From positions 11,324-75,323 of the forward strand of contig NYWG01000162.1 in assembly GCA_002684915.1 (NCBI GenBank): a stretch of 64,000 nt of DNA. The letters run 5' to 3'. A model generated the notes under the pieces. That model did not search any database. It was given only the letters and a program-made list of their open reading frames with translations, and was not told the origin of the DNA. Both the position numbers and the translations under genes were made by a program. Shown piece by piece: positions 54,148 through 56,109 of the stretch (within the stretch, counting starts at the first letter, position 1; the number at the start of each line of letters is the position of its first letter). Origin of the DNA: Verrucomicrobiales bacterium (GTDB taxonomy: Bacteria; Verrucomicrobiota; Verrucomicrobiia; Limisphaerales; UBA1096).

Positions 54148-56109
54148 ATGGAAAAATTTGAAACGTTTGTCATCAATCTAGAAAGAAGAAAAGATCGCCT
54201 TGAGTCATTTTTACAACGGTTTCCCGGGACCGGCAACGCTAAAAAATTGAAAATTTTTAAAGCCATAGATGGAAATAATTTAAATTACGATTCCCCCGCG
54301 TTACATCATGTTTTGAAAGAATCCATCGAGCAAAGGCATCTTAAATTAACATTAAATTCTGGAGAAATAGGGTGCTTGTTGAGTCACGTCAGCCTCTGGA
54401 AAAAAATTGTCGACGAGAACATACCCTTTGCTCACATTTATGAGGACGATGCCCTGTTCTCTGAAAATTTCGTAACTAGAATTAAAAAGGTATTTGAAAA
54501 TACTTTTGGTATAAATCCTCCTCCTGCTATCGTGTATACCGGGGGCAGGAAACATAAAAATTATGTCACCAAAAATATTACAAAAACTATCGGTAACCTT
54601 GTCGCGCATTCCAAAAAAAATTGGAATCGACACGTCAAAGATTTAGATCGCTGGCTGCACGCTTACATCATCTCGAATCGAGGCGCTGGGCTGTTGCTAG
54701 ACATGGTGTTCAATCACTTCAACGGCAAACTTGGCATAGACCAAGCCGTCGTCATGTTTCTAAACAAAAGTAGCGAGGAAACATACAGCGCGAACCCACT
54801 TCTATGTTACTCCATACCCCAAGGAGACTCAGATATTAGAAACTGGGGCATAAAACAGAATTATTGCCCCTTTTCCTTGCAAGATAAAGTTAATTTAATA
54901 AAATTTCCGCAATTCATTCAGCACGACGACGATATTACTGACTCGCTGAACCCTGACGTCAAAGAAAAGTGTGAAGATTTATATGGATCAGGCGTTATCG
55001 ATGGCATCATCTCACATTGTCACCAAGGCTACGACAATTTATTTCTTCCACACCACCGCTTACAACATAATTTTAATGTAGATACAACGCTGTACATTAA
55101 TCAATTCAGGTATAGCAACTGCTCTCAAATAGGCGTTATTACAGATGATCAGGGTGATGATTTTATACTTTGTGGTGGGGGGTCCAAAATTCCCAATCAA
55201 TTGATTGTGAAAGACTTAGATTTCAGCAACGTATGCGGACATGACGACACACCTGGGGAAAACTGTGTTAGATTCGACACACATCGCTGGAACGATTCAC
55301 TCGGACTAATCTACAAACAAAATTATCATAGCGCTTTTATCGATGTATGGGATATTCTGAATGCACAAATAGTTGGCGAAGTCAAAGAAGAAGCCAAATT
55401 TCAAGTTATTTTTGAACACGCAATTCCACAACTAAAAAACAACATCGAAAAAATCTCAATTTATCAGGATGGCCGCGTCGGTGATGAGACTTACTTGTGG
55501 GCTGAAGTCACTTCTGAAAACTTTCAAACACACAATGTCGACAGTGAAGACGTGCTTGACTGCACACTGAAACCAGGAGGTGTTGTTCTCCTAGGTGATG
55601 AAATGACCACATTTTGCACTAATTCGAATCGCCCCAATCTACCTTTGCGTGATTTGACAAACTATCAGAAAATGAATTCTTTGTCTTTAATATCTCAGTA
55701 TAATCGACTTGTCTTAAAAATAATAAAACCCGATGTGGCTCCTCGCGCAGCTGATGGTAAAATTACCATTAATTTATACGTGACAAAAAATACGGATGCG
55801 TATTTGTCAGATTCTAAGAAATGTACCGGAACCGACGAATCGTGTACCTCAAACGATGATTGCGATACGGGAAAGACGTGCGACTATGATGAAAGCACGC
55901 TATCATCTTTTGGCAAGAGGCTGACACTTTTAGCAGCGTGCACAAGGATAGAACACGCCGCTCACCTAAATGATTTTCATTTTAAGTGCGAAGATAACAA
56001 CGCTACGTGGGATCCAAAAAGGGAACAGTGCGTAGACTCTTGCAACACTCGGTGCTGGCATAAAATAACATTAAACTTAGAAAATGTTCCAACGTCTAGT
56101 CAAAGTTAA
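54148..56109 (+). CDS. GT25 glycosyltransferase fused to a roughly 400-aa C-terminal region carrying a Cys module shared with the giant neighbour
   Basis: FVINLERRKDRLESF, SGEIGCLLSHVSLWKKIV and AHIYEDDALF form the GT25 part. C-terminal module KKCTGTDESCTSNDDCDTGKTCDYDES. Confidence 0.8.
   Translation: MEKFETFVINLERRKDRLESFLQRFPGTGNAKKLKIFKAIDGNNLNYDSPALHHVLKESIEQRHLKLTLNSGEIGCLLSHVSLWKKIVDENIPFAHIYEDDALFSENFVTRIKKVFENTFGINPPPAIVYTGGRKHKNYVTKNITKTIGNLVAHSKKNWNRHVKDLDRWLHAYIISNRGAGLLLDMVFNHFNGKLGIDQAVVMFLNKSSEETYSANPLLCYSIPQGDSDIRNWGIKQNYCPFSLQDKVNLIKFPQFIQHDDDITDSLNPDVKEKCEDLYGSGVIDGIISHCHQGYDNLFLPHHRLQHNFNVDTTLYINQFRYSNCSQIGVITDDQGDDFILCGGGSKIPNQLIVKDLDFSNVCGHDDTPGENCVRFDTHRWNDSLGLIYKQNYHSAFIDVWDILNAQIVGEVKEEAKFQVIFEHAIPQLKNNIEKISIYQDGRVGDETYLWAEVTSENFQTHNVDSEDVLDCTLKPGGVVLLGDEMTTFCTNSNRPNLPLRDLTNYQKMNSLSLISQYNRLVLKIIKPDVAPRAADGKITINLYVTKNTDAYLSDSKKCTGTDESCTSNDDCDTGKTCDYDESTLSSFGKRLTLLAACTRIEHAAHLNDFHFKCEDNNATWDPKREQCVDSCNTRCWHKITLNLENVPTSSQS

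Follow-up and report, generated by a model that had tools for sequence, protein, structure and literature searches.

The locus

We analyzed a 64,000-nt stretch of contig NYWG01000162.1 (assembly GCA_002684915.1, positions 11,324 to 75,323 of the forward strand), referred to below as the window, with a focus on two convergent genes. One encodes a protein of glycosyltransferase family 25 (GT25), and the other, called the giant gene here, encodes a very large cysteine-rich protein. Near its C-terminus, the GT25 protein carries a module of approximately 25 residues with four cysteines, and similar peptides recur in the giant protein. An earlier note on this DNA had taken this similarity as a sign of domain shuffling between the neighbors or of a docking function. 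We assign a probability of about 0.62 to the reading that the module is lineage-specific and has been copied within the giant protein, and that one diverged copy was captured by the GT25 protein. The two genes and the parts of the GT25 protein, given in amino acids (aa), are located as follows.

54148-56109 (+), GT25 protein gene, an open reading frame (ORF) of 653 aa comprising an N-terminal catalytic domain, then a middle region, the module, and a cysteine-rich tail
54160-54708 (+), GT25 catalytic domain, aa 5-187; Pfam PF01755, 97.1 bits against a cut-off of 24
54718-55797 (+), GT25 middle region, aa 191-550; fast-evolving, no family match
55816-55896 (+), GT25 four-cysteine module KKCTGTDESCTSNDDCDTGKTCDYDES, aa 557-583; from the translation and from shuffling and leave-out tests
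55822-55881 (+), four-cysteine core CTGTDESCTSNDDCDTGKTC of the GT25 module
55897-56106 (+), conserved GT25 C-terminal tail, aa 584-653, with five conserved cysteines; from the alignment, found in both lineages
56096-64000 (-), 3' portion of the giant gene, 2,634 codons; frame open to base 64000, 5' end outside the window

Both the PF01755 score and the similarity to solved enzymes place the window protein in glycosyltransferase family 25; in the Protein Data Bank (PDB), its domain matched human COLGALT1 and mimivirus R655 at E ~1e-12. A Pfam scan of the C-terminal 413 aa matched nothing. Full-length orthologues were limited to P0001 (93% identity) and P0002 (54%). In a metagenome scan, full-length relatives were confined to the 93% clade, and a search with the C-terminal half returned the same contig of a giant virus metagenome-assembled genome (GVMAG) alone. 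The related contigs all derive from marine metagenomes, one of them being a GVMAG bin from Tara sample ERX555975.

As previously noted, the 3' ends of the two genes overlap by 14 nt (56096-56109). On contig L003, which represents the 54%-identity lineage, an 18-nt gap between the giant and GT25 genes takes the place of this overlap. Upstream, the GT25 gene is adjoined by a class B acid phosphatase gene (53523-54107, -), an arrangement kept in all relatives. The conserved GT25 tail contains a C-x3-C-x3-C motif at aa 628-636.

Similarity between the GT25 protein and the giant protein

The peptide and coordinates on which the shuffling proposal had been based were correct, as 55816-55896 (+) indeed encodes KKCTGTDESCTSNDDCDTGKTCDYDES. 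When the GT25 protein was compared with the giant protein by BLASTP, the top three matches all originated from GT25 aa 557-589. Their targets were giant aa 4-42, 1553-1592, and 724-754, with composition-corrected E values of 0.002, 0.022, and 0.44, respectively. Giant residues are counted here from the Met codon at 63811 (-), which had been proposed as the start of the gene. The reading frame is, however, open from 63811 up to the window edge at base 64000, and this Met is therefore not the start.

The best alignment score, 79, was reached by none of 2000 full, composition-preserving shuffles (mean 40.3, standard deviation 5.2) and by 2 of 2000 shuffles in which the cysteines were held fixed. 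The second and third scores, 66 and 54, lay above all 300 shuffles. A profile built from the giant copies only gave 20.7 bits on GT25 aa 551-595, a score reached by 0/5000 full and 0/5000 cysteine-fixed shuffles. With the same profile, and among 1,123 six-frame ORFs of the window, GT25 ranked first of those outside the giant gene (15.6 bits, E 6.7e-4); the next ORF had an E value of 0.32. A comparison of the two orthologue alignments as hidden Markov models (HMMs) with hhalign returned the module stretch alone (E 0.028, 48% identity over 29 columns). Thus, according to the shuffling, profile, and hhalign results, the similarity exceeds that expected for low-complexity sequence and goes beyond both composition and the cysteine frame.

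The copies share the frame C-x6..15-C-[TSV]-[STA]-[NDR]-x-[DP]-C-x5..12-C, within which the GT25 copy has the spacing C-x6-C-x5-C-x5-C. By its leave-out profile score and its four-cysteine spacing, the GT25 copy belongs to the module family. Two alignments (A2 and A3) revealed four invariant cysteine columns and an Asp that precedes the third cysteine almost without exception. The GT25 copy and giant copy g4 have the heptapeptide CTSNDDC in common.

Copies of the module in the giant protein

The earlier note had listed the module repeatedly in the giant protein. The listed copies, named after their first giant residue where they held up, are given below with their alignment scores and with the fraction of shuffles that reached the score.

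63719-63799 (-), copy g4, CSDTDTNCTSNDDCVAGRAWRAGDATC; score 79, 0/1000 cysteine-fixed shuffles; best protein match of the GT25 copy; DNA subfamily A
59060-59149 (-), copy g1553, CSGGSEIDTPNAASISCSTNEPCPTGAGTC; score 66, 0/1000 cysteine-fixed shuffles
61577-61636 (-), copy g724, CSNAGDLCTSDNDCAGSDRC; score 54, above all full shuffles; same cysteine frame as the GT25 copy
61823-61891 (-), weak candidate CIGGDKDGDDCSDNYACPSGSC; core only, 188/1000 cysteine-fixed shuffles
60449-60493 (-), weak candidate DDCNFDTDCADSATC; core only, 572/1000 shuffles
57248-57316 (-), weak candidate KCNKTSDCATRSAGDDGSLLECE, directly past the internal stop; core only, 612/1000 shuffles

Repetition was thus borne out for 63719-63799, for 59060-59149 and, more weakly, for 61577-61636. 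The other three peptides, CSDNYACPSGSC, CNFDTDCADSATC, and KCNKTSDC..., share just a C-x5-C core with the module. They fit only the broader pattern C-x-x-[DN]-x-D-C and scored at chance level (188, 572, and 612 of 1000 cysteine-fixed shuffles, respectively). The full giant protein contains 26 C-x5-C pairs, compared with 7.5 ± 2.6 expected. The orthologous copies of g1553 in the relatives have the more canonical form KCSANDDCSDGxPC. In all copies, the second cysteine is followed by T-S, V-T, S-A, or S-T.

Behavior of the module as a cassette

The giant gene continues beyond the window. Its orthologue P0007, encoded on a 102-kb ENA contig, comprises 4,929 aa, so that approximately 2,300 N-terminal residues, including more module copies, lie outside the window. 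The giant protein was aligned with those of contigs L004, L005, and L009. About eight module copies are present in the 4,929-aa relative. The giant proteins of the relatives hold further copies, among them a tandem pair, RCSDTRTNCVTNADC....

At the DNA level, five copies form a subfamily A (g4, t1, t2, L9_t, and L9_ins). They have a common, sharply bounded block of ~70 nt in unrelated flanks, and the third positions of their conserved codons are identical in 8/8 to 16/16 cases. For t1, from the tandem copies of a relative, 10 of the 11 codons conserved with g4 are identical (P 4.4e-4). Moreover, strains whose giant proteins are 87-90% identical differ in their module content: L005 has a tandem duplication, L009 has an extra inserted copy, GRCSDTQANCATDAWCAGDATCE, and another cysteine-rich cassette is absent from the window. 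Copying at the DNA level is thus evident inside the giant gene, where the module multiplies and changes place as an in-frame unit of ~70 nt through tandem duplications and ectopic copies.

The giant protein of the P0002 lineage lacks the g1553 copy at that site. Elsewhere, it has a four-cysteine element of its own, CADGKNAGKQCTDSVDCLGKYC, which is a match to the pattern only and was not detected by the module profile; if it is related to the module, the module family predates the P0002 split. A search of IMG/VR with the subfamily-A DNA block returned nothing. The high GC content of the cassette (0.61) had raised the possibility of a foreign origin, which we rejected, as the window has many GC peaks of similar height.

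Origin of the GT25 copy

In the GT25 protein, a variable loop bounded by the conserved blocks NLYVTKNT and LAACTRIEH contains the module. The corresponding loop of P0002 is shorter, rich in D/S, free of cysteines, and devoid of the module, and the P0002 locus has the same order of acid phosphatase, GT25, and giant genes. We counted codon differences between the window and L005, the 93% relative. The catalytic domain showed 3 synonymous and 0 non-synonymous differences, and the C-terminal tail 2 and 0. For aa 191-550, we found 11 synonymous and 30 non-synonymous differences. In the module itself, 0 synonymous and 4 non-synonymous differences were observed, with the cysteines kept. The module is therefore located in a fast-evolving part of the gene.

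These observations support domain shuffling between the giant family and GT25. Most economically, GT25 would have captured a cassette of the giant family once the P0002 lineage had split off. We infer common descent of the GT25 copy and the giant copies, and transfer from the giant gene to GT25 is the most likely direction. One diverged copy would have been taken up in a hypervariable, tolerant GT25 loop near the C-terminus, between the two conserved blocks. The module itself is part of the repertoire of a cysteine-rich protein of ~4,900 aa from an uncultivated marine giant virus.

The GT25 copy has no synonymous-site signal against g4, its best protein match, indicating that the transfer was not recent; the GT25 copy thus appears to be old. 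The shuffling proposed in the earlier note was accordingly upheld in part: the cassette is copied in the giant gene and its GT25 copy sits in a variable loop, but the event appears old, the module probably has carriers beyond these two proteins, and the direction relies on one outgroup.

Predicted fold

An AlphaFold2 prediction for GT25 aa 554-587 (34 aa, with three window paralogues as the alignment) reached a mean predicted local distance difference test (pLDDT) value of 81.6 and consisted of short strands and one turn. The structure prediction suggested in the earlier note is therefore consistent with an autonomous mini-fold. Most likely, the module would fold on its own as a compact knob held together by two disulfides, and it may be exposed at the protein surface. 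The 34-aa model is probably too short for Foldseek, which matched it to nothing in the PDB or BFVD. The model of the full-length GT25 protein, calculated from three sequences, had a pLDDT of 32.6 and was discarded.

Distribution of the module

No other ORF of the 64-kb window or of 405 kb of fetched loci matched the module. In the relative L041, a 390-aa protein encoded directly upstream of the giant gene has the peptide KCSDDDNLCYIDDDCNTG, whose score against the GT25 module was reached by 0/1000 full and 23/1000 cysteine-fixed shuffles. This protein probably carries a module copy, and the module would then not be confined to the GT25/giant pair.

When 1.84 billion representative proteins were searched exhaustively with the profile, only two matched, namely the giant orthologue (8 stretches) and one protein of 138 aa. 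The latter contains two tandem copies and is encoded on contig L040 (68-898), which has a GC content of 62% and looks bacterial. These hits suggest that units like the module exist in apparently bacterial secreted proteins. A dockerin-like protein encoded beside the 138-aa protein on L040 carries CNNDDDCGPDHEC. A homologous-protein search with the module alignment and PDB sequence and profile searches with the module gave nothing meaningful, and a comparison of the module with described families yielded no significant match. In our view, the four-cysteine module represents a new, small family of cysteine repeats whose general kind is already known.

In L041 (5077-9962), the region upstream of the giant gene encodes the 390-aa protein, a cysteine-rich protein of 899 aa, and, a few genes away from the giant gene, a glycosyltransferase of the GT10 family. 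Glycosyltransferase genes thus lie near the giant gene on both sides. The 899-aa protein was rejected as a module carrier, as its matches were at chance level. Pfam matched nothing in the two upstream neighbors of the giant gene in the relative. In the window, a GT15-like mannosyltransferase matched weakly at 40610-41965 (+), with 24.8 bits, just below the cut-off.

Further features of the giant gene

The earlier note had mentioned an internal stop in the giant gene, and the sequence does contain it.

57335-57337 (-), in-frame TAA in an acidic linker; absent in all four relatives; splits the glycine-rich domain
56600-57688 (-), glycine-rich domain of the giant protein, split by the stop; PF21722, 28.8 bits

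The giant products of the relatives (JGI 3300009550, ENA ERZ27250668, and MDSX01012565, with GT25 proteins of 93% identity) comprise 4,835-4,929 aa and have no internal stop. The TAA in the window reflects either a truncation specific to this strain or an error in the sequence. It is flanked by the direct repeat GATGA(A/G)TTTTATGAAG. The window fragment passes the 24.3-bit cut-off of Gly_rich_2 (PF21722) with its 28.8 bits. P0007 stays just under the threshold with 23.5 bits, yet matches phrog_2295 at E 1.1e-27. In the giant fragment of the P0002 lineage (L003 2683-5127, -), the entire glycine-rich domain is missing.

Two further differences between strains were observed. A cysteine-free insertion of 114 aa (SDWDANSF...FPDGMY, 57866-58207, -) is specific to the window and had no Pfam match; at its site, the relatives have the short cysteine motif PENTCEAGESGSCETTNV. 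Conversely, a cysteine-rich cassette of ~67 aa (PRCPILEPL...CEGDGECG...NNC) is present in L005 and L009 and absent from the window giant, where its site would be at ~59366-59395 (-). A homologous-protein search with the 2,158-aa giant fragment returned nothing, and PDB sequence and profile searches with the giant protein gave nothing meaningful.

The earlier note had also described a second module with at least five repeats. We identified four full units of this twin CX3C module, two CX3C motifs with a loop between them as in small Tim proteins. The repetition as such is real, as none of 2000 shuffles reached the count. Assignment to the small-Tim-like pattern is by pattern match only.

61403-61507 (-), twin CX3C unit 1, CYKTC...CAQYC(Y)
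61157-61222 (-), twin CX3C unit 2, CYTKC...CANTC(Y)
60233-60307 (-), twin CX3C unit 3, CWKSC...CVAAC(F)
59954-60040 (-), twin CX3C unit 4, CFNTC...CAKAC(Y)

Within 59954-61507 (-), the units have the architecture C-x3-C, a loop of 13-26 residues, and C-x3-C-[YF], which suggests disulfide-stapled helical hairpins.

Weighing of the explanations

Several observations weigh against copying within the giant gene and capture by GT25. The common stretch is short, with ~25 residues of which four are cysteines, and the hhalign probability was 1.8%. Copy g724 (giant aa 724-754) was not significant with cysteines fixed (137/1000). At the DNA level, just 3 of 10 codons of the GT25 copy agreed with g4 (P 0.88). 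The closest DNA match of the GT25 copy was g724, with 34 of 48 nt and 6 of 7 conserved codons identical, and this signal is suggestive at P 0.025, a value uncorrected for several comparisons. Conservation of the cysteines among strains of 93% identity is uninformative. The polarity depends on one outgroup, and thus loss of the module in the P0002 lineage is possible. As the GT25 protein itself scored below the threshold of the search of 1.84 billion proteins, that search was blind to carriers of a single copy. Finally, signal peptides and membrane segments are lacking in both the GT25 protein and the giant protein, so that disulfides would require a viral cytoplasmic oxidase. We found no Erv1/ALR-type oxidase (HNxVN motif) in the window, in a motif search too simple to inform either way.

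A second explanation concerns function and is compatible with an origin by shuffling. Here, the module would serve in binding, either homotypically or to a common partner, and would thereby recruit GT25 to the giant protein or to the same virion structure, which the enzyme would then glycosylate. In line with this, the GT25 and giant genes are convergent neighbors whose 14-nt overlap is conserved, and in the relative, the far side of the giant gene holds the GT10 gene and the probable third module carrier within a few genes upstream. Furthermore, the module is modeled as an autonomous fold, and the GT25 relatives COLGALT1 and R655 act on structural proteins, as proposed for the latter (PMC9546862). 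The 54% orthologue, however, keeps the gene order without the module; thus, the module is not required for whatever the GT25/giant pair does. Its non-cysteine positions also change quickly. We therefore regard docking as unlikely, and a role of the module in co-localizing the enzyme with the giant protein is speculation.

Alternatively, the four cysteines, the conserved acidic residues, or both might bind Zn2+ or Ca2+ in a cytoplasmic protein. The absence of signal peptides and membrane segments from both proteins would agree with such a site, as would the nearly invariant Asp before the third cysteine and the N/D-rich core. On the other hand, the cysteines are spaced by five to six residues and form no CxxC pairs, which would be unusual for a zinc knuckle, and no zinc-finger family was matched. 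Giant viruses, moreover, commonly form disulfides in the cytoplasm with oxidases of their own. A metal site is quite unlikely on this evidence.

Two D/N/S/T/C-rich proteins might also have arrived at the same cysteine frame by chance or by convergence of low-complexity sequence, without common descent. Half of the six listed copies were indeed at chance level, g724 lost significance with cysteines fixed, and comparable C-x-x-D-x-D-C-x-x-G-x-x-C units are present in bacterial proteins that are unrelated (P0008 and L040; 20.2 bits for the myxobacterial repeat TIGR04201). The shuffling tests with fixed cysteines disfavor this explanation (0/5000 for the profile and 2/2000 for the pairwise score). 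The CTSNDDC identity between GT25 and g4, the rank of GT25 as the only non-giant ORF of the window that matched, and the mobility of the module family in the genome likewise argue against it, and we consider it very unlikely.

In animals, small disulfide modules are well known to be O-glycosylated in a domain-specific manner. By analogy with the POFUT/POGLUT enzymes that act on EGF and TSR modules, the folded module might be a glycosylation acceptor whose Ser/Thr after the second cysteine is recognized by neighboring viral glycosyltransferases, with the enzyme's own copy being self-modified or a pseudo-substrate. Ser/Thr-type residues follow the second cysteine in all copies, and glycosyltransferase genes are located near the giant gene on both sides. 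This model, no more than an analogy, is highly improbable, as domain-specific O-glycosylation is carried out by families other than GT25 and GT10, and beyond the Ser/Thr enrichment there is no sequon-like invariance in a protein that is rich in S/T/D/N overall. Equally a long shot is the broader conjecture, again by analogy, that the module is a self-propagating in-frame cassette. It might mark virion-surface genes (those of the 390-aa protein, the giant protein, and GT25) and serve as a recognition unit for nearby glycosyltransferases, with the enzyme's copy used for co-assembly or self-modification. If true, the module would be a viral counterpart of the domain-specific O-glycosylation of EGF and TSR modules.

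If, instead, the module was copied within the giant gene and captured by GT25, the locus would provide a clean and datable case of module-level shuffling in a giant-virus genome, with copying visible at the nucleotide level and copy numbers that differ between strains. The rapidly diversifying, cysteine-rich giant protein and the adjacent glycosyltransferases would represent a candidate virion-surface system of an uncultivated marine virus. The HMM of the module could be used as a marker for tracing this gene cluster, and the finding offers a hint of a functional link between GT25 and the giant protein, which is speculative.

Comparison with known systems

Among described families, the closest likeness was to TIGR04201 (Myxo_Cys_RPT, NCBIfam), a short repeat of Myxococcales whose core fits the module from C2 to C4 (C2-x5-C3-x5-C4). 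With the tandem pair of L005, the match reached 20.2 bits (E 4.5e-4; two stretches, profile positions 4-18 of 22), which is below the cut-off of 25. The GT25 copy alone gave 11.8 bits (E 0.21), and the whole giant proteins had no match. Compared with TIGR04201, the viral module is extended at its N-terminus by one more cysteine and a loop, occurs in scattered copies instead of long tandem arrays, and belongs to a eukaryotic-type giant virus.

DUF7107, WAP, the EB module, and the carboxypeptidase A inhibitor resemble the module in size and in their D/G-rich C-x5-C-x5-C spacing, with scores of 12.3-17.4 bits that all remained under the gathering thresholds. For DUF7107 (threshold 24.6 bits), the GT25 module scored 12.3 and P0008 15.3 bits. 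For WAP (PF00095, threshold 20.8 bits), copy g724 was the only match, with 17.4 bits; WAP has eight cysteines, whereas the module has four. Pfam searches with eight module-like peptides at E values up to 10 gave no match to Dickkopf_N, LDL-receptor class A (LDLa), or EGF-like domains, although the HMMER filters drop most matches above ~0.1, and very weak matches of this kind may be missed.

The likeness of the enzyme to mimivirus R655, COLGALT1, and related GT25 enzymes is that of a genuine GT25 domain, which takes up the first 190-280 residues of the window protein. R655 and COLGALT1 have no counterpart to its C-terminal extension of ~400 aa, which includes the module and is restricted to this viral clade. 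For R655, a role as a collagen galactosyltransferase has been proposed but not demonstrated (PMC9546862).

In its architecture, the system recalls the shuffling of EGF, LDLa, and TSR modules in animals, to which we found no sequence relationship. In both cases, an autonomous cysteine-rich unit is reused within a giant multi-module protein and a neighboring enzyme. The viral case differs in having neither introns nor secretion signals, and its copying can be seen as an in-frame DNA cassette of ~70 nt in a viral gene.

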